This document shows, piece by piece, positions 2-29,500 of a stretch of 64,000 nt of DNA. The translations under genes and the position numbers were made by a program. The number at the start of each line of letters is the position of its first letter. The stretch's first letter is position 1. The notes beneath the pieces are model-generated. The model had not been told where the DNA came from and did no database searches. It saw only the letters and a program-made list of their open reading frames with translations. The stretch lies in IMG/VR virus record IMGVR_UViG_3300021958_000023, positions 1 to 64,000 of that record, one strand, 5' to 3'. Source of the stretch: a virus (Duplodnaviria; Caudoviricetes).

Positions 2-3000
2 TCAGCCTCTACCGCAAATGAGGCTGACAATCGTCCCACAATTGATACTGACACCTATTTTACACTCACCTCAAACATCACTTCAAATACTGATACAGGT
101 CGTGGAACCTATCAGGCAGGACCAGTGGTAGCCTATGACTGGGAATCAACACACTCACTCTATCTCTCATCTGGCACAGTCAACGCTGCCACAGATCAAA
201 TCACTTGGACTGCGCACGGACTCTACAGCAACTTCTGCCTACTCTTTAACACTCCGCGCAAAGGCGAGAGTGATGGTGGCATGACTGATGGAACTGTCTA
301 CTATGTGACACGCATTGATGATGATACTTTTGAGCTCTACTCAGATATTGCGCGCACCTCAAAGGTGAATCTCACCACTCCTCTTAACACCTATGGCTTG
401 TGCCGTCTTGGACTTGTATATCGCATCTACTCGTCTACTGGACAGACACGTCGTACAATATATACTTCAACTGCTGGAGGTACAGAGAATCGTTATGCAG
501 GATACTTCTATATGAATAATCCAAAGAATTCATACTCACTGCGCACAATTAACCTCTCATCCTACTTTTCAAATCCCATTGGAACCGTTCGTGTAAACAA
601 TATCTACACCTATGGTGATTTAGGCGGTTATCGTGAGTTTATGTATCACTACTTTCAATACAACACACCTGCGAGAAACTACTATCAACGATATAATGGG
701 TATATCTATCCTAACTTAGAGTTGAATGGTAACTCTGTCTACACATCAGGTTCTAACACCTATATGCGTTGGTCGATCTATATCCGTTCGTCAGTGAGTT
801 ATATCTACTATCGTTTGTATCTTACAAATACATATACCGTAGCTCCTACCACAGAGGCTGATTTTTCTTATTCAGGATCTGACCTCTATGGTGAAGCCTA
901 TGGAGCAGGACTAGTAGCTCCAGATCGTCTTATCGCGTTTCAGGGAGACGATCCGTCGAGCACCTACGCATACTCCTCAGAACAGTTTTCGTATCTAGCA
1001 AATCAGCGAGAAAAAGGCAGACACGGAACTATTGCTGCACAGTATAACTATCCTCTTGCTAGCACAGACGAAGCAGGCAGTTTTAATGTAGGTTATAACT
1101 CTTCTACAGTAACACCAGGAACTGCTTCAGAGATATTCTATATATTTTCAAGAACACTCACATCAGCCAGAAACACCATCTATGCTCCGAATCACGGTAT
1201 CGCTTCTGGAGCCACAGTATTTCTTGTAATTCCGTCAACAGAGTATGCAGCAGGAGAACGTTTCGTTTTCTCTGACTCTACTGGTAACTCAACTACTATC
1301 AATCAGGCCACTATTGAGGCAACTGTTACAGTAGTCACCGCAGACATAATTAAAGTGACTCTAGCAGTCACTCCGAATACAGATGACATTCAGTCATTTC
1401 CAAGTGCCTTTTCAATTGAGTATCGTGTTCAAAACTCGCTCTACAACTCAATCTACATTCTAAACCACAAAATCTCTGGTACAGCTCGTGCTCAGTATTT
1501 TGCAGAAGGTAATGATGAAGGCAATCGTGTGTATCAAATTACTGCGGATGGATCTGCAGCATTTTTATTCACAGAGTATGATATTGGTGATAACATCTCA
1601 AACCCGTCACTCACTCTCTATCGTGGCGAAACATATAGATTTGATTTAAATGCTTCTGGACATCCATTCTACTTTACTACTGATAACGGAGCTGGATACT
1701 CGGCTGGAGGATATGTAGGAGAGTATACCACAGGAGTATCAAACTCACGTTCCGAAACTGGAAATGTAGTATTTGCAGTAGGTGCTTCTACTCCTCACAC
1801 ACTCTACTATCAGTGTGGTGTGCATGCACTCATGAATGGAACTGTTGAAATTCGTGACAAAGGTGTTGAAATTGGCGGTCTGTCTAATGGTCAGTTCTAC
1901 GAAATTTCACGTGCAACTGATTCTCGTATCACTCTACGCGCTCTTAACACAGTATCTGCGTCAAATGTCACTGGAGCAATTGGTGCTGCTAATAATAACA
2001 CTGTCACATACTTTGTAGACATTGAAACACCTCTTGGATCTGCTGTTACAACTGCTTCGATTACAAAAGTAGAGTTCAGAGGTGACTTTGGTAATCAGAA
2101 CGAATATGTTGTGATGAGTTTTAGTGATGGCGATGAATATTTTGTTGGTACAAGCGGTCAAGATACTTCAAACTACTTAACAGAAGGATTCTTTGGAACT
2201 AAAAATATCTCTCAAATTCTAAAAACTGAGGGTGGAAAAGTAGGATTTGATGTAACAATTAACCCAACTTCACAGGTTAACTTTGGTCGCTACTTAGCCG
2301 GAAACAAATACTATGAAATCAGATTTACTGTGAGCGGAGATGCTGGTACTGTGACTCTTAACACAGCCTCAACTAGTGGTAAACAGGAGTTTATTGTTGA
2401 TTCAGTAGTTGGCGCCTATGATGGAGTTTTCCCAATCACCACAACACCAAGTCCAAAAACATTTACCTTTGAGTCAGACTTTAAGATTCCAAGAAGACAC
2501 TATGACTTTATTTCTTCAAATGTAGACACTGGAACTGGAGTAATCACTCTCATTGATGATCATAACCTTGTGACTGGAGAAGAACTTACCTACTCACCAG
2601 GACAAAATGACTCAATACTTACAGCTGGTGAAGGTGGTAATGTATTTGCAATTAGTATTACCGCTAACACATTTGCTCTTGCTGACTCTTCTCAAAACGC
2701 GCTTAACAATTCAAAACTATCACTCACTGCTCCAACAGGAACTCACACAGTAAGAAGTGATGGTATCGTTAAACTTGTTACTGGAACTGGTTTGATCAGT
2801 GTAGCAGCTAACGGAACTTCAGTGACTGGAACTGGTACTTCATTCTTAACTGATTTCAAGCGTTTTGATGATATCTATATTCCAACCGATGGTTATATTC
2901 AGCCATTTACAGTAGATCAGATTACAACTGATTCTAATATGACACTCTATGATGCAACTCCAGCACTAGCAGCTAATGTGACCTATCAATATTCAACACA

Positions 3001-4906
3001 GTTAATTCTACGTCCAGACGGTTATTCTCTACACCTTCCATTTGACGGTGGTGTTGACATTACAGCCGGAACTTCGCCAAACTCAAAAATTACTCGTCAA
3101 ACACGTAAGTATTTTAGATATCAGTCTGGTAAAGGTATTCAAAACTCAGTTGCGATTAACTTTAATCCAGCAAAGATTATGCAAGACTTAATTAAAACCA
3201 GTGGTAATGTTGCTACTGTAAATACTCAAGAAGCGCACAATCTAAAAGTAGGTGATGAAATTACAATTGACGGAGCTGTGGTAACTACAGGTAATAACTA
3301 CTTTAACGGTGATTTTGCTGTCAGTGAAACTGCTAATGATTTCCAATTCAAGTATGTAATGGAAGCAGAACCAACACAAGCAAAAGCAGGAGGATTTCCA
3401 ACCTATGTTAGAAAATCATGGTTAGATTCTTATGTTCGCACAGGAATGTTTGATGATCAGAATGGATTCTTCTGGGAGTTTGATGGTCAAAAACTCTACT
3501 GTGTAAGACGCTCCTCAACACTGCAGATTGCAGGATCTGTCAATGTAACTCGTGGTTCTCAAGTTGTAGAAGGAGTGCTAACCTCATTTACTACTCAGCT
3601 TTCAAGAGATGATAAAGTAGTAATTCGTGGACAAACCTATCAAATTGTAGAAGTATCCTCAGATCTTCGCATGGTTGTGCAGCCTGCTTATCGTGGAGTA
3701 ACAGCCGCAAAAGTTAAAGTAACTAAAACTGTCGATACTCGCATTCCACAAGACGAGTGGAATTTAGATGTAGCAGACGGAACAGGCCCAAGTGGATTCG
3801 TTCTTAATACTACAAAGATTCAGATGGCCTACTCAGACTTCTCTTGGTATGGTGCAGGTAAGATTCGTTTTGGGTTCAAAGACCAAAAAGGTCATGTGAA
3901 GTATGTGCATGAGTTTAGACACAACAACCGTTTGAATGAATCATACTTTAGATCAGGTAACCTTCCAGGACGCTATGAAATTGAAAACGGTCCACAAGCT
4001 ACAACAGCTCCAACTCTCTTCCACTTTGGTACTTCTGTAATCATGGACGGAACATTTGATGATGATAAGGCCTATCTATTTACTCGTCAATCTCGTCCAA
4101 TGGCTTATACTAATGGTGGTTCGTCATCGTTTACCTCAAGTGCTGTTTCTACTTTTGAACAGATTACTCTAAATGGTAAGCGTGTGTATGTGTATTCTAT
4201 TCCAGTATCTAATGTAAACGCAGCTGCTACCACAGTAGGTGACCAGATTCGAGATGCTAGTAATGCAAACTTACCAGAAGGAACCTATGTTACACAGATT
4301 AAAGTTGATGGATCGAACTCAAAGATTTATACTAACTATCCAGCATTAGCTACACAGCCTTCTGCAGCTATCTATAATGATATCTCAAGTGGTGCAACAA
4401 TCACAGTTGGAGAACAAGAAGCAATTGACCTAACTCGTCCTCTACCGCTCGTTAGTTTGAGACTAGCTCCTTCAGTTGACTCTTCACTAACAGGATCAGT
4501 TGGAGAGCGTGAAATTATTAACCGAATGCAGCTAGCTCTAAAACAGGCTGGTATTACAACTAATCAGGGTGTAGAAGTGTTCTTGATTATTAATGCACTT
4601 CCATCTCAACTCTCATTTGAAGATGCTGACAAACCATCACTCTCAGAGATTATTGAGCACTCAGCTGGAGAAACATTAACTGGTGGTACAACAATTCTAG
4701 CTACAAAAGCTTCTGCCGGTTCTGTAGAAATTGACTTAGCAGAGTTGTTAGAGCTTGGTAACTCAATCTTAGGTGGTGATGGAATCTTCCCAGCTGGTCC
4801 TGACCTTCTTACAGTTGCTGTGCAGCCACAGTCTACGGCTTCAGTGACCTACTCAACTCCTTTTGAAGTCAGTGGTAAAATTTCATGGTCTGAATCTCAG
4901 GCATAA
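2..4906 (+). CDS. Very large virion structural / tail-associated protein (5' end lies outside the window) with an internal cupredoxin-like domain
   Basis: Frame is open from position 2; T/S/G-rich beta composition; GHPFYF...YYQCGVHALM motif; C-terminal region typical of marine T4-like structural proteins. Confidence 0.75.
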   Translation, partial: SASTANEADNRPTIDTDTYFTLTSNITSNTDTGRGTYQAGPVVAYDWESTHSLYLSSGTVNAATDQITWTAHGLYSNFCLLFNTPRKGESDGGMTDGTVYYVTRIDDDTFELYSDIARTSKVNLTTPLNTYGLCRLGLVYRIYSSTGQTRRTIYTSTAGGTENRYAGYFYMNNPKNSYSLRTINLSSYFSNPIGTVRVNNIYTYGDLGGYREFMYHYFQYNTPARNYYQRYNGYIYPNLELNGNSVYTSGSNTYMRWSIYIRSSVSYIYYRLYLTNTYTVAPTTEADFSYSGSDLYGEAYGAGLVAPDRLIAFQGDDPSSTYAYSSEQFSYLANQREKGRHGTIAAQYNYPLASTDEAGSFNVGYNSSTVTPGTASEIFYIFSRTLTSARNTIYAPNHGIASGATVFLVIPSTEYAAGERFVFSDSTGNSTTINQATIEATVTVVTADIIKVTLAVTPNTDDIQSFPSAFSIEYRVQNSLYNSIYILNHKISGTARAQYFAEGNDEGNRVYQITADGSAAFLFTEYDIGDNISNPSLTLYRGETYRFDLNASGHPFYFTTDNGAGYSAGGYVGEYTTGVSNSRSETGNVVFAVGASTPHTLYYQCGVHALMNGTVEIRDKGVEIGGLSNGQFYEISRATDSRITLRALNTVSASNVTGAIGAANNNTVTYFVDIETPLGSAVTTASITKVEFRGDFGNQNEYVVMSFSDGDEYFVGTSGQDTSNYLTEGFFGTKNISQILKTEGGKVGFDVTINPTSQVNFGRYLAGNKYYEIRFTVSGDAGTVTLNTASTSGKQEFIVDSVVGAYDGVFPITTTPSPKTFTFESDFKIPRRHYDFISSNVDTGTGVITLIDDHNLVTGEELTYSPGQNDSILTAGEGGNVFAISITANTFALADSSQNALNNSKLSLTAPTGTHTVRSDGIVKLVTGTGLISVAANGTSVTGTGTSFLTDFKRFDDIYIPTDGYIQPFTVDQITTDSNMTLYDATPALAANVTYQYSTQLILRPDGYSLHLPFDGGVDITAGTSPNSKITRQTRKYFRYQSGKGIQNSVAINFNPAKIMQDLIKTSGNVATVNTQEAHNLKVGDEITIDGAVVTTGNNYFNGDFAVSETANDFQFKYVMEAEPTQAKAGGFPTYVRKSWLDSYVRTGMFDDQNGFFWEFDGQKLYCVRRSSTLQIAGSVNVTRGSQVVEGVLTSFTTQLSRDDKVVIRGQTYQIVEVSSDLRMVVQPAYRGVTAAKVKVTKTVDTRIPQDEWNLDVADGTGPSGFVLNTTKIQMAYSDFSWYGAGKIRFGFKDQKGHVKYVHEFRHNNRLNESYFRSGNLPGRYEIENGPQATTAPTLFHFGTSVIMDGTFDDDKAYLFTRQSRPMAYTNGGSSSFTSSAVSTFEQITLNGKRVYVYSIPVSNVNAAATTVGDQIRDASNANLPEGTYVTQIKVDGSNSKIYTNYPALATQPSAAIYNDISSGATITVGEQEAIDLTRPLPLVSLRLAPSVDSSLTGSVGEREIINRMQLALKQAGITTNQGVEVFLIINALPSQLSFEDADKPSLSEIIEHSAGETLTGGTTILATKASAGSVEIDLAELLELGNSILGGDGIFPAGPDLLTVAVQPQSTASVTYSTPFEVSGKISWSESQA

Positions 4907-26138: not shown

Positions 26139-26535
26139 GCCAGTTGCCTTGATATAGTCTAAAAATTTCTACTGCCCCACTTGAACGAATGTAGGCGCGT
26201 CCTCCATCTATCATCTGTCCATCATCAAATTTACGATAGTCATGTCGATAACGCGAATACTCATACTCATCATTCACACAGATCATGCCAAACAGTTCGC
26301 GTTCTATCTGATCTGCGGCACAGATATACGGTTTGCCCTCTTTATCATTCCAGTAGAGGCCAAAGTAGTAGTTACCAAATTTAGGATGTGGTGTGTCGCG
26401 ATAAAATATGTCTACAGGATGATTAGAGTCGCTCAGTTCTGAGGTGCAGACATATCGACAAGGTATACCGTCTTCTGAAGTATAGTGTTGCTCAACAGCT
26501 TCTATATCGAAAACAGGATAGTGATTGATTTTCAT
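26101..26535 (-). CDS. Conserved phage hypothetical protein
   Basis: PHPKFGNYYFG...SRYRHDY...IDGGRAYIR. Confidence 0.7.
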   Translation of the reverse strand: MKINHYPVFDIEAVEQHYTSEDGIPCRYVCTSELSDSNHPVDIFYRDTPHPKFGNYYFGLYWNDKEGKPYICAADQIERELFGMICVNDEYEYSRYRHDYRKFDDGQMIDGGRAYIRSSGAVEIFRLYQGNWHEEGKNVSSETQ

Positions 26536-26554
26536 GTGTCACTCTAGTAGTTAT

Positions 26555-26650
26555 AAGGTGAGAAGACGCGTAATCTGCCAAGGCTCCGCTTATGTTTAAC
26601 ATTTTTGGGTTGGCGTTGAGATCCGCAGATGTTGCGTCTCCTCAATTTGT
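26555..26650 (-). ncRNA. Small structured RNA or leader (about 95 nt; RNA-E)
   Basis: Own promoter at 26657-26685; 11-bp closing stem UGAGGAGACGC/GCGUCUUCUCA and inner stem AUCUGC/GCAGAU. Confidence 0.5.
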
Positions 26651-26656
26651 AATTAT

Positions 26657-26685
26657 ATATTATCAAAAATCTCAGCGCCATGCAA
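26657..26685 (-). promoter_or_regulatory. sigma70-like promoter of RNA-E
   Basis: TTGCAT-N17-TAATAT. Confidence 0.6.
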
Positions 26686-26720
26686 GTATAATTTTGCTTA
26701 AATTTATATTTTAGTAAAAG

Positions 26721-27270
26721 TAAAAAGGGCGTAACACGAGGTTACACCCTTTTACCTCTAGAGTTCTGGTGACAGAGCTACTAGATTCTCCTTTTGTGTA
26801 TACTGTCTTTCGTCCGAATCTAATTCAGCGACAAGGCATCCAAAGATGAACAGCTTACCTTAAAAATATAATCTTAAACTAGCCCCGCCTCTCGCCGTTT
26901 AAGCACTCGCACACTTCTCTTACCGAGGAACAACAGGTGGATGAGGTCCGTTGCGTCAACTCGTAAGCCCCCTCTAGCGAGTCTACCTACATAAGGTGTA
27001 GTCGCGAAGTCGAAACTTCCACTACGTCTCCCCCTCGCAGAAGAGCTATGTGAATAGGTGGGAATCGGCTATACCCACAACCTCCTAGTAGATACCTAAT
27101 GATTATCTAATATCTTTCAGAGGAACTTCGCATAGACTAGTTAGGTCTAACTCCTTGTAACTCTGCATCTCTACAGTCTTACAGTGCCACTACAGCTACG
27201 AATCAAGTTCATGTCTCTACGAACATTCTTCCTTGCACTATTCTTGGGAAGAGCGACTTCCCAATCTTTA
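26721..27270 (-). ncRNA. Large structured ncRNA, about 550 nt, ROOL-like (RNA-D)
   Basis: No ORF; own promoter and terminator; many hairpins including GAAGU-UUCG-ACUUC; blocks GUGCAAGGAAGAAUG, UUCGUAG, CUAGUCUAUGCGAAGUUCC and GGACGAAAG resemble ROOL as I recall it. Confidence 0.7.
26722..26753 (-). terminator. Intrinsic terminator of RNA-D
   Basis: AAAAGGGTGTAAC-ctcgt-GTTACGCCCTTTTT. Confidence 0.85.
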
Positions 27271-27276
27271 TAACTT

Positions 27277-27305
27277 ATCTTACCAAAATTTCTTCCAGTA
27301 AGCAA
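27277..27305 (-). promoter_or_regulatory. sigma70-like promoter of RNA-D
   Basis: TTGCTT-N17-TAAGAT. Confidence 0.7.
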
Positions 27306-27307
27306 GT

Positions 27308-28077
27308 AAAAAGTTAACTTATCTACTCCGACCCTCTCGTTTGTTACATAGAGCCACCAATCAGGCTCAGCCTACATAGATAAGTAGTGACCACCACCAA
27401 CCTCGTCAGTCACCAATGAGGCAGCATACACGCTGTTGTTCCTCCCCGACTCGTGAATTGTGTCTCACGACAAGACCCCGCCAGATATCCTGCTTTACAG
27501 CCTACGGCACGGGACTGAGATTTTCGCCATTTCGCTACTCAGTTCAACGAGAGGGACTCTACACCCCCATTGCCGAGACAACTCAGCATCTTACGCTTAG
27601 ATCATCGTTGAGGAAGGTTTTTTTAAGTAGGTTATCCTTACCGAAACTACTCAGAAAGAGGAGAGCGATTAAACTAAGGTCCGTCTATGACTGGACTACC
27701 TGCTCTTTCTTATATAACTGCCTGGTGGCACTAATTGCTCTTACCTAAGTAATCAGACCAGGACTTTCGCTGGCAGCCAGAACTAGTATAAGTTCAGCGC
27801 GAGTGAGGTATTAACGCCCCTCCTAGAACTTCACCGTTACCCCCGTTGGCAAAGGCTATTCTGGCGTCTAGCTTTCTGTTTGACGTGAACCCAGCTAGAG
27901 GGAACGGAACAAGGATATTTATATACCGCCTCCGAGGCAGGGCGGAAGAGAAAGGCTACAGGGCGGTTCCGTCCCTACCGTTGCATCATTAACTGGATTT
28001 AACTTCCGCTAGGAGGTCACTTGCCGAAGCTCGTTCACTCAATCTAGCCCAGAGGATGATGCCTTTCTCAATCTTTA
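27308..28077 (-). ncRNA. Very large structured ncRNA, about 770 nt (RNA-C; GOLLD-sized, family unassigned)
   Basis: Own promoter; GC-richer than flanks; perfect long-range helices 28061-28069/27948-27956 and 27546-27555/27332-27341; many local hairpins; no sense-strand ORF. Confidence 0.7.
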
Positions 28078-28083
28078 TAATGT

Positions 28084-28112
28084 ATTATAAAATATTTTTA
28101 ACCAATAAGCAA
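28084..28112 (-). promoter_or_regulatory. sigma70-like promoter of RNA-C
   Basis: TTGCTT-N17-TATAAT. Confidence 0.75.
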
Positions 28113-28114
28113 AC

Positions 28115-28286
28115 AAAAAATCATGAGCGAGAGTAGTTTCAATACTAGCGAAGAGTAATTTTGAATAGTGCCTAGTGAACTGCGTCATACAATACACATC
28201 GTTGGCGGGTCTTGCGTTCTTTACTCCTAGCACTCGCTCGGTGACTTTGACAGAGGTTTTACAAGAAGGTTATCCTCTGAACTTCT
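28115..28286 (-). ncRNA. Structured ncRNA, about 170 nt (RNA-B)
   Basis: Own promoter; stems CAGAGG/CCUCUG, GAGCGAG/CUCGCUC and GUGCUAG/CUAGGCAC; terminal U-run. Confidence 0.55.
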
Positions 28287-28292
28287 TTATAT

Positions 28293-28321
28293 ATAATACA
28301 AAAACTTTAACCATTAAGCAA
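28293..28321 (-). promoter_or_regulatory. sigma70-like promoter of RNA-B
   Basis: TTGCTT-N17-TATTAT. Confidence 0.7.
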
Positions 28322-28323
28322 CT

Positions 28324-28563
28324 AAAAAGTTGATGGGGAGGATTCTCGCGCCTCCCCAGACTTTGACATTCGAGCACGGGTCTTTGGTTGACTAGCCTTC
28401 TCTACTTTGTCTTAGTCTATACGCGGTGGAATTGTCGATACCACAGAACGCTGTTTCTATCGTATGAAACTAGTACGACTGATAATATTGCTTACGACTA
28501 GGGGCAGACAAACCTACCGTCGCGAGCTCGGTGAGTTGCAGCTAGGCTTCTCGCTCAATCAGT
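28324..28563 (-). ncRNA. Structured ncRNA, about 240 nt (RNA-A)
   Basis: Own promoter; 3' hairpin GGGGAGG/CCUCCCC then a U-run; no ORF. Confidence 0.55.
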
Positions 28564-28569
28564 AAATAT

Positions 28570-28598
28570 ATAATATAAAATTTTTAAGCGCGAAGCAA
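28570..28598 (-). promoter_or_regulatory. sigma70-like promoter of RNA-A
   Basis: TTGCTT-N17-TATTAT. Confidence 0.7.
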
Positions 28599-28599
28599 T

Positions 28600-28806
28600 T
28601 TAAAAATTATTATAAATTGTAGTTGCCCTGTCGCTAAATGCTATATTATAAACCTCTTCAAACCCGTCTTCTCGCATATAGGCTTCTTCGTTATGCCAGA
28701 GTCGCTTAATATAGCCATCATAACTAGTATAGGCTATATGGTCAGAAGTAATATAACCTTTGACCATATAGAATATTCTGTGCATCTCTTTATGACTAGT
28801 CTTCAT
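28600..28806 (-). CDS. Hypothetical phage protein
   Basis: FYMVKG...SYDGY.KRLW.NEEAY.REDGFEE motif. Confidence 0.6.
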   Translation of the reverse strand: MKTSHKEMHRIFYMVKGYITSDHIAYTSYDGYIKRLWHNEEAYMREDGFEEVYNIAFSDRATTIYNNF

Positions 28807-29500
28807 ATATCTCTAACACCTCACGCACTACAGGATGACGCTCAATATCTGCATGACTAAACTCAAGATACTTAATATAGTCTGTTGCTCCATAAGAAAC
28901 TAGACGATCCATAAAGTGAGCTAGCCCATTATTTTCAAATCCATTGTCTGCCTGATCTAGATCACCAGTTAAAATAAACTTTGATCCTTCGCCTAGTCGA
29001 GTAAGTAACATTTTTACTTGTTCGCGAGTTGCATTTTGCATCTCATCAGCAATTACCCAACAGTGTTTAAAAGTTCTGCCTCGCATATAAGCAAGAGGAG
29101 CTACTTCGATCTTTTCTTCTTTCATAAAATACTCCATCTGTTGACGAGAAAAGTAAGAAGCTAAAATATCAGTAATTGGCTTCATCCACGGATCCATCTT
29201 TTCTAGTAAATCGCCTGGTAAGTATCCGTGTTCTTCATCCACTGAAACAGCTGGTCGTGTTATCACAATCTTATCAAACTGTCTATCAGTAAACTCTTCT
29301 GCTCCTTTAGATACTGCTAGTAGGGTTTTACCTGTTCCACTCGGTCCTGTAGCTACAATAACATGAGTATGTATATCGTTCATTAAATTGATATATTCTT
29401 GTTGCTTTTCGTTTTTTGGCGATATAGTTACTTTTTTACTAGGACGAATAGTTGCTAGTTCTGTATCTACTATTTTGATAGAAGCATTTCTTTTTGTCAT
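28796..29500 (-). CDS. phoH: PhoH-family ATPase
   Basis: GPSGTGKT, ITRPAV, GYLPG, AYMRGRTF, DEMQN, LTRLGEGSK; AAGGAG RBS before ATG 29500. Confidence 0.95.
   Translation of the reverse strand: MTKRNASIKIVDTELATIRPSKKVTISPKNEKQQEYINLMNDIHTHVIVATGPSGTGKTLLAVSKGAEEFTDRQFDKIVITRPAVSVDEEHGYLPGDLLEKMDPWMKPITDILASYFSRQQMEYFMKEEKIEVAPLAYMRGRTFKHCWVIADEMQNATREQVKMLLTRLGEGSKFILTGDLDQADNGFENNGLAHFMDRLVSYGATDYIKYLEFSHADIERHPVVREVLEIYED

Follow-up and report, generated by a model that had tools for sequence, protein, structure and literature searches.

The window analysed here comprises the first 64 kb (64,000 nucleotides) of a 173.5-kb IMG/VR virus record rated complete, and contains tail-fibre genes, PhoH, peroxiredoxin and nine tRNA genes. 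The virus has no close relative among cultured phages: its PhoH is at most 49% identical to theirs, and tblastn of a neighbouring 437-aa protein against cultured phages gave no match. The genes around the stretch studied here lie on the minus strand, and no credible ORF is found in the ~2.2 kb that separate the end of PhoH (28796) from the following gene (26535). A TTGCTT-N17-TAtaAT element occurs four times on the minus strand of this island, with −35 boxes at 28598, 28321, 28112 and 27305.

An earlier note on the window had described positions 27308–28077 as a giant structured RNA of about 770 nt. This RNA corresponds to the third unit of the island, and runs on the minus strand from ~28076 to 27308, between a predicted promoter (28112–28084) and a U-run (27312–27308). 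The promoter is kept in three related loci (L002, L003 and L004), and the transcript would start at about 28077–28075. G+C content is 0.46–0.52 in the RNA region, compared with ~0.36 in the flanking genes. The features of the unit are as follows.

28084–28112, minus strand: predicted promoter; −35 TTGCTT 28112–28107, 17-nt spacer, −10 TATAAT 28089–28084; consensus match
27948–28069, minus strand: M1, a three-way-junction domain with P1, P2, P3, a variable hairpin and P5
27656–27947, minus strand: lineage-specific middle, divided into D2 (27947–27800), D3 (27799–27712) and D4 (27711–27656); shared with L003 and L004 alone (81% identity)
27624–27653, minus strand: D5 hairpin UGAGUAG-UUUC-GGUAAGGAUAACC-CUACUUA, then A-rich AAAAAACCU; 96% identical in L002
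27514–27623, minus strand: variable linker with a CUGAG (27542–27538)/CUCAG (27519–27515) hairpin and the 5′ arm of a 10-bp repeat (27555–27546)
27476–27513, minus strand: M3a, closing stem CCCGU/GCGGG around near-invariant GCCGUNGGCUGUAAAGC with a GUAA-capped hairpin
27385–27470, minus strand: M4, with Pa (27470–27451), invariant GUCGGGG (27450–27444), Pb (27444–27418) and Pc (27415–27385)
27317–27385, minus strand: M3b, closing stem ACUUAUCUA/UAGAUAAGU, AGGCUG, GAGCC/GGCUC hairpin, UAUGUAACAAAC, C-GAGA-G mini-hairpin and GGGUCGGAG
27308–27316, minus strand: 3′ tail UAAC-UUUUU, directly before the next −35 box (27305–27300)

The 3′ tail is a possible weak terminator, consisting of a weak stem followed by U5; it is not called by a terminator scan, and L003 has an interrupted U-run. 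Because the sole canonical terminator of the island lies at 26753–26723, read-through into the next unit is possible. The next unit (window 26720–27268, minus strand) has its own predicted promoter (−35 at 27305–27300) and consists of a manA-like head (27264–27048) and a body ending at that terminator. The head matches the manA model with 40.5 bits (E 2e-8), below the gathering cut-off of 55.2; Rfam has no match to ROOL in this unit. Blocks of the body, such as CUUAAACGGCGAGAGGCGGGGCUAGUUUAAG, resemble by eye the 3′ half of a common M1-headed RNA described below. Two non-coding units with predicted promoters lie upstream on the minus strand (window 28118–28286 and 28335–28562). Unit A begins with a hairpin paralogous to D5, GAGGAUAACC. 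The terminal hairpin of unit 0, GGGGAGGCGCGAGAAUCCUCCCC, also ends short M1-headed RNAs of L136 and L181.

Coding capacity and comparison with known RNA families

No ORF of at least 40 aa is present on the RNA strand of the stretch. On the antisense strand, a stop-free run of 122 aa in the window shrinks to 47–59 aa in relatives, and has no Pfam or PHROG match. A protein-coding reading was rejected on these grounds, there being no conserved reading frame on either strand. As in structured non-coding RNA genes generally, a conserved ORF is absent, and compensatory changes occur in M1, M3a, M4 and M3b.

A search of the whole window with Rfam 15 at the gathering score gave no matches on the stretch, to GOLLD or any other family. 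The earlier note had proposed covariance models of GOLLD, ROOL, OLE, HEARO and group I and II introns as a check, and had stated that a strong match to an existing family would remove the novelty. With permissive filters (cmscan, 26400–28900, E up to 10), there was no match to GOLLD (RF01998), and none on the stretch to ROOL (RF03087), OLE, HEARO, group I or group II introns, or any other Rfam 15 family. The manA model (RF01745) has no match inside 27308–28077, and its match in the next unit is the sole Rfam signal nearby. Rfam searches of 14 related loci found no GOLLD, ROOL, OLE, HEARO or group I/II intron match. The description of the RNA as belonging to an unassigned family therefore holds, and the modules described below are without description in Rfam 15 or in the literature searched. 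A survey of IMG/VR (Fremin et al. 2023, PMC10690425) put forward 8,495 predicted structured RNAs of short length. That survey shares with the present work the IMG/VR source and a focus on phage intergenic regions, and describes covarying motifs of 29–151 nt; since motifs were capped at 151 nt, it would not describe the composite RNA. Some modules, for example M1 (~122 nt) or M4 (~86 nt), may be among its candidates.

The thermodynamic signal of the stretch is weak, with MFE z-scores of −1.45 for the minus strand and −1.53 for the plus strand. Perfect inverted repeats in the 770 nt were compared with 300 dinucleotide shuffles, giving 9 versus 4.5 for 8-mers (p ~0.07), 4 versus 1.2 for 9-mers (p ~0.08) and 1 versus 0.26 for 10-mers (p ~0.17). 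Long inverted repeats by themselves, at about twofold enrichment of 8-, 9- and 10-mers, do not exceed chance. Because the inverted repeats are not above chance and the MFE z-score of the minus strand is no better than that of the plus strand, the case for structure rests on comparison with relatives.

Relatives and conserved modules

Loci anchored on PhoH gave three close relatives, of which L003 and L004 contain the whole RNA at 81% identity and L002 contains a 520-nt version. Motif scans of IMG/VR and JGI metagenomes yielded ~60 further marine and estuarine contigs. By nhmmer, these have only parts of the RNA in common with the window, in other orders. Comparative support was obtained for five modules, namely M1, the GGAUAACC hairpin, M3a, M4 and M3b, in which the helices of the relatives stay paired despite sequence change. 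These modules make up ~45% of the RNA; the other ~55% (D2–D4 and the linker) is without comparative support. D2–D4 and the 110-nt linker have relatives in L003 and L004 only, two sequences too similar to bear on pairing, and nhmmer found no homologue of the middle 290 nt in loci beyond these two. Covariation, on which the earlier note had made the claim of an RNA gene depend, is thus present in the helices of M1, M3a, M4 and M3b, while the middle 290 nt offer too few sequences. RNAalifold on whole-unit MAFFT alignments mis-aligned variable hairpins, and anchored alignments and the energies of cognate and non-cognate duplexes were used for this reason.

All three long inverted repeats reported in the earlier note are present on the minus strand, with one arm displaced by one base. 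The first, 9 bp long (GAGAAAGGC 28069–28061 with GCCUUUCUC 27956–27948), is the closing stem P1 of M1, a domain found in 59 distinct sequences, and is backed by cognate duplex energies. Because the register of P1 is too variable to align, it was judged by these energies (−16.6 kcal/mol for cognate strands, −10.7 for non-cognate and −8.4 for shuffled strands, with 18 distinct 5′ strands). Within P1 lie P2 (AUCAU 28060–28056 with AUGAU 27989–27985), P3 (CUGG 28052–28049 with CCAG 27996–27993), a variable hairpin and a P5 hairpin with an ACGGAA loop, together with the invariant strands CCUC, AAGNUAAA and CAACGG. In a MAFFT alignment of the 59 distinct sequences, 96.9% of cells in the core helices are paired, compared with 18–42% after sliding of the partners. 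There are 77 cells with changes in both partners, compared with 25.5 in shuffles, and none of the 500 shuffles reaches 77; P3 alternates between U-A/C-G and G-C/A-U. All 62 distinct copies of M1 have a TTGCxx-N16–18-TAnnnT element that ends 22–25 nt before AUCAUCC, from which it follows that M1 begins at the predicted transcript start. The window and L154 have M1 copies with 91% identity, yet the bodies of the two RNAs differ, that of L154 being of the common type.

The closing stem of M3a is rebuilt in other lineages as UCCGC/GCGGA, CCCC/GGGG, CUUCUCUCA/UGAGAGAAG and UCUGCUCAG/CUGAGUAGA, with an energy of −11.7 for cognate strands, −6.9 for non-cognate and −7.0 for shuffled strands. Cognate duplexes of M3a and M3b are 4.5–5 kcal/mol better than non-cognate ones.

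M4 was compared over 17 distinct sequences. Two local stems listed in the earlier note, UCGUGA/UCACGA and GUGAC/GUCAC, are its Pa and Pc, and both covary strongly. Pa is found in 17 of 17 sequences and comes in seven versions of the stem, where a stem would be expected by chance at 0.26 per sequence; in every one of the 17, the fold of Pb begins at its first base (mean z −2.6). In the Pc hairpin, which carries the invariant G-rich loop GGCGAGGUUGGUGG, 7 of 8 pairs are changed on both sides (untrimmed MAFFT alignment). A figure of 100% pairing for M4 arises partly by construction, as the sequences were trimmed at the helix ends, and was not relied on. The Pc loop GGCGAGGUUGGUGG(C), at window 27407–27393 (alignment A5, columns 87–101), has four GG tracts 1–3 bases apart, a pattern matching that of a two-layer G-quadruplex; the window has GA as its first tract, with an additional GG behind.

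The third inverted repeat (CUUAUCUA 27384–27377 with UAGAUAAG 27325–27318; its first arm is the one displaced in the earlier note) had been proposed to form a 3′ pseudoknot. The pairing itself is borne out as the closing stem of M3b, which is rebuilt in relatives as ACUUGCUC/GAGCGAGU, CCUACC/GGUAGG, AAAUGUC/GGCAUUU and AAAUACC/GGUAUUU, with an energy of −8.0 for cognate and −3.5 for non-cognate strands. Both this stem and the inner hairpin are rebuilt in L002, L003, L016, L018, L027, L130 and L187. The stem is nested, not a pseudoknot; the apparent crossing of a second helix came from the 10-bp repeat.

That repeat (CCCUCUCGUU 27555–27546 with AACGAGAGGG 27341–27332), proposed to delimit a domain, is not conserved: L003 and L004 break 3 of its 10 pairs without compensation. 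It also conflicts with a local mini-hairpin, capped by UUCG or GNRA, that L002 and the more distant relatives have at the position of its 3′ arm; this hairpin is CUAC-UUCG-GUAG or UCU-UUCG-AGA in other phages and C-GNRA-G in the window, L003, L130 and L187. We read CGAGAG in the window as this conserved mini-hairpin, and the 10-bp match as probably fortuitous. The proposal that long-range helices delimit the domains fails with the 10-bp helix and the pseudoknot topology.

Other local stems of the earlier note, CUAGCU/AGCUAG and CCGCC/GGCGG (both in the middle, D2–D4) and CUGAG/CUCAG, are present, and are invariant or lineage-specific in the two relatives having them. D2 and D4 are cleanly missing from the 520-nt version in L002/L015. 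The D5 hairpin is invariant in close relatives, and unit A next to it (~28285) begins with a paralogous hairpin, as do the unit-A-like RNAs of ~30 other loci. The variable linker is poorly conserved even in L003/L004.

Arrangement and distribution of the modules

Among relatives, the 770-nt layout occurs only in L003 and L004, with the 520-nt version in L002/L015. The 770-nt arrangement is not a conserved whole, being restricted to these near relatives, whereas most of the ~60 other contigs carry the modules in separate transcription units. In many related loci, M1 heads a conserved RNA of ~450–530 nt with a different body (for example L188, L168 and L018). At these loci the next unit is headed by GGAUAACC, and is followed by a promoter, a 105-aa gene and M3a/M3b/M4 behind its stop codon. 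The product of the 105-aa gene is DNA-binding-like, and the gene precedes M3a/M3b/M4 in most relatives. The window genome has a homologue at 173160–173462 on the plus strand (G000:C1), outside the window and far from the RNA island (42% identity, E 1e-22), and tblastn of the 105-aa gene against the 770-nt stretch found no remnant.

A further arrangement is seen at L069:2495–3530 (plus strand), where a ~1030-nt unit running from promoter to terminator contains M1, a true manA RNA (2831–3000, 61.3 bits, above threshold) and M4 (3216–3319), and has no RNA-strand ORF longer than 51 aa. From this linkage, and from the manA-like next unit in the window, we infer that manA and the new modules form one pool.

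Only viral and metagenome contigs of marine or estuarine origin were found to contain the modules. A scan of 185,579 cellular genomes for the exact conserved motif of M1 had no matches; the M4 motif had 105 matches in the same genomes, but all are G+C-rich, without the flanking hairpins, and attributable to chance. Among 50,697 cultured-phage records, blastn found no match to the window region or to an M1-headed relative.

Interpretation and alternative readings

The comparison indicates that this phage, uncultured, marine and T4-like, has in the ~770-nt stretch a genuine RNA gene that is non-coding and folded, and that the RNA is a chain of smaller building blocks combined otherwise in related phages. 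The description as a giant structured RNA is therefore upheld in that the stretch is non-coding and structured and has its own predicted promoter, but not in the sense of a single conserved giant RNA, as comparative support lies in the five modules. The invariant loops and compensated stem changes point to selection on RNA structure.

The reading we favour, with a probability of roughly 60%, is that of a promoter-driven non-coding RNA gene composed of a string of separately folding modules, drawn from a phage pool that includes manA, and acting in trans. According to this reading, host RNA polymerase would make the RNA early and abundantly, with M1 at the 5′ end, followed by the lineage-specific middle, the GGAUAACC hairpin, M3a, M4 and M3b, all joined by A/U-rich linkers. 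Recombination would deal these modules, manA included, in different combinations among related phages. The RNA would then act in trans, and its invariant unpaired segments (CCUC, AAGNUAAA and CAACGG in M1; GCCGUNGGCUGUAAAGC in M3a; GUCGGGG and the G-rich loop in M4; UAUGUAACAAAC in M3b) would be docking surfaces for RNA–RNA assembly or for a protein partner. Our best guess, by analogy, is a scaffold or assembly RNA; this role is favoured because of the physical linkage of the modules to manA, and is thus drawn from association. The 770-nt form is a minority arrangement and probably a fusion. The layouts are compatible with either direction of change, a fusion in the window phage or a split elsewhere.

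The 770-nt transcript, perhaps with read-through into the manA-like unit, may instead be a precursor that is cut at the A/U-rich linkers into module-sized stable RNAs acting separately. Single-stranded linkers of this kind are present (UAUAUAAAUAU at ~27922, UUAUAUAAGAAAG at ~27718 and UUAAAAAAACC at ~27625), most relatives have the modules as transcription units of their own or as 3′ trailers, and D2 and D4 drop out cleanly in L002. However, no processing sites are known, and the occurrence of M1 and M4 in one unit in the unrelated L069 lineage suggests that their linkage is tolerated or useful. We regard such processing as a serious though less probable alternative; it is compatible with the modular trans-acting RNA, and the two are not exclusive.

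A cis-acting role appears improbable. Here M1 would modify RNA polymerase as a put-type antiterminator, or sense a ligand as a riboswitch, and so control read-through from the island into the genes downstream, the rest of the RNA being spacer. The position of M1 within a few bases of the inferred start in all 62 copies, its three-way junction with invariant internal loops, and the listing of manA in Rfam as a cis-regulatory candidate would fit such a role, as would several loci in which long ORFs follow 440–860 nt after M1 with no terminator called between. Other loci, however, have a terminator called 300–530 nt downstream, some of them also with a fresh promoter. M1 has no adjoining expression platform, and the 3′ modules are conserved and covarying and hence not spacer. 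Because the genes downstream vary from locus to locus and terminators close most units, regulation of a particular gene in cis is unlikely.

The notion of a single giant RNA of the GOLLD/ROOL class, with long-range helices tying the domains into a global fold, is quite improbable, although size, phage origin and the tRNA genes beside the islands of relatives would suit it. Two long-range contacts could be cited in its favour. A complementarity of 13 positions links UCCGCCCUGCCUC, just after M1, with GAGUCGGGGAGGA in M4, and has one compensated pair in L003; it clashes with the covarying Pb and is missing from L002. RNAalifold on the three full-length sequences proposes pairing of the post-M1 segment with GUCGGGGAGGA of M4. 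The second contact is between GCCACCAGG and the complementary M4 loop. Pairing of this loop in cis with CC[AG]CC was rejected as a general feature, the partner being found in 8 of 15 lineages, with none within 400 nt in the other 7. Module order also differs between lineages, and neither the GOLLD nor the ROOL model matches. The non-conserved 10-bp helix, the link that clashes with Pb and the patchy partner of the M4 loop argue for beads on a string and against a global fold.

That the stretch is a non-functional by-product, incidentally transcribed debris of promoter-cassette recombination or of a decayed protein gene, is highly improbable and is already largely refuted for the modules: the region is a rearrangement hot spot with repeated promoters, its middle 290 nt have no detectable relatives beyond two phages, and the stretch lacks the 105-aa gene found before M3/M4 elsewhere, a copy of which lies at 173160–173462, but the module loops are near-invariant while the stems change with compensation, and tblastn finds no remnant of that gene in the stretch.

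Comparison with known systems

The earlier note had matched the RNA to the GOLLD class by size and phage context. Size, phage origin and the tRNA neighbours of relatives do fit, but no GOLLD model match was obtained. GOLLD (RF01998) and ROOL (RF03087) are likewise large non-coding RNAs borne by phages and prophages, with many hairpin domains, often beside tRNA genes, and relatives of the window island are flanked by tRNAs. They differ in that each has one conserved architecture, whereas the RNA described here, known from its sequence, is a variable chain of shuffled modules that the GOLLD and ROOL covariance models do not match at E up to 10. Hosts and habitats differ as well, the present RNA being from uncultured marine phages. 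GOLLD and ROOL form RNA-only multimers in cryo-EM, according to a preprint (10.1101/2024.12.08.627333).

The manA RNA motif (RF01745; Weinberg et al. 2010, PMC2864571) was described from marine metagenomes and T4-like phages, which is also the niche of the present RNA. The manA-like copy in the window, like M1, starts right after its own promoter, and in L069 a true manA lies in one transcription unit with M1 and M4. M1, M3a, M3b and M4, in contrast, have no sequence likeness to the manA consensus. In vitro, manA RNAs form RNA-only cages of 8, 10 and 60 subunits (preprint 10.64898/2026.07.01.735769). The likeness of the present RNA to the cage-forming manA, ROOL and GOLLD rests on analogy and on its genomic linkage to manA.

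In T4-type phages, promoter-early stem-loop (PeSL) cassettes reportedly shuffle small protein genes. The phages related to that of the window similarly reassort small units bordered by repeated early-type promoters; here the cargo is structured RNA instead of small protein genes, and the likeness lies in the promoters and unit borders.

A more far-reaching proposal, which we consider rather doubtful, is that M1, M3a, M3b, M4 and manA are an interchangeable phage RNA construction kit, whose parts marine T4-like phages would join in varying orders into large RNA-only assemblies or RNA–protein particles, in which M1 would be a dedicated transcript-start domain and the M4 loop could fold into a two-layer G-quadruplex serving as a docking knob. 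Such a quadruplex, if true, would be a rare natural case of an RNA quadruplex used for docking. Few natural RNAs are known to build cages without protein, and large phage RNAs such as GOLLD, ROOL and, most recently, manA belong to them. In this island manA is accompanied by four or more additional covarying RNA modules, for which no catalogue entry was found. The phages recombine these modules much as proteins recombine domains. The resulting natural domain-swap variants (770, 520, ~500 and ~1030 nt) bear on which module does what, and the strict transcript-start position of M1 is a clue to its role.

Further observations on M1-headed RNAs and the M1 domain

The M1-headed RNAs of ~450–530 nt (for example L188:2759–3298, minus strand; L168:1625–2164, minus strand; L018:3785–4290, plus strand) often end in a terminator, have no Rfam match, and contain the blocks GUCGGCUCUGAGGGGCAGGGGAAACG, GUCGCCUACC and CAACAGGCGGGU...GGGGGCUGUGUUGG. 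They look like a large undescribed family in their own right.

Genes for tRNAs lie near several of these RNAs. In L154 (2519–2592, minus strand) and L178, the M1-headed RNA is immediately followed at its 3′ end by a tRNA, with a CAU anticodon by eye; tRNAs flank the islands in L188 and L168, which recalls the association of GOLLD with tRNAs; and five tRNA genes lie just upstream of the M1–manA–M4 unit in L069.

In M1, columns 16, 102 and 129 (alignment A6) vary together, with C/G/G the commonest combination; nine sequences have G/C/C, and the combinations C/C/G and G/G/U are less frequent. For column 16 there are two possible partners, the final base of P1 and the base that would extend P2, and the covariation suggests a junction triple or a switch. 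The invariant CAACGG of M1 is complementary by eye to CCGUUG of M3a; the window carries CCGUAG instead.
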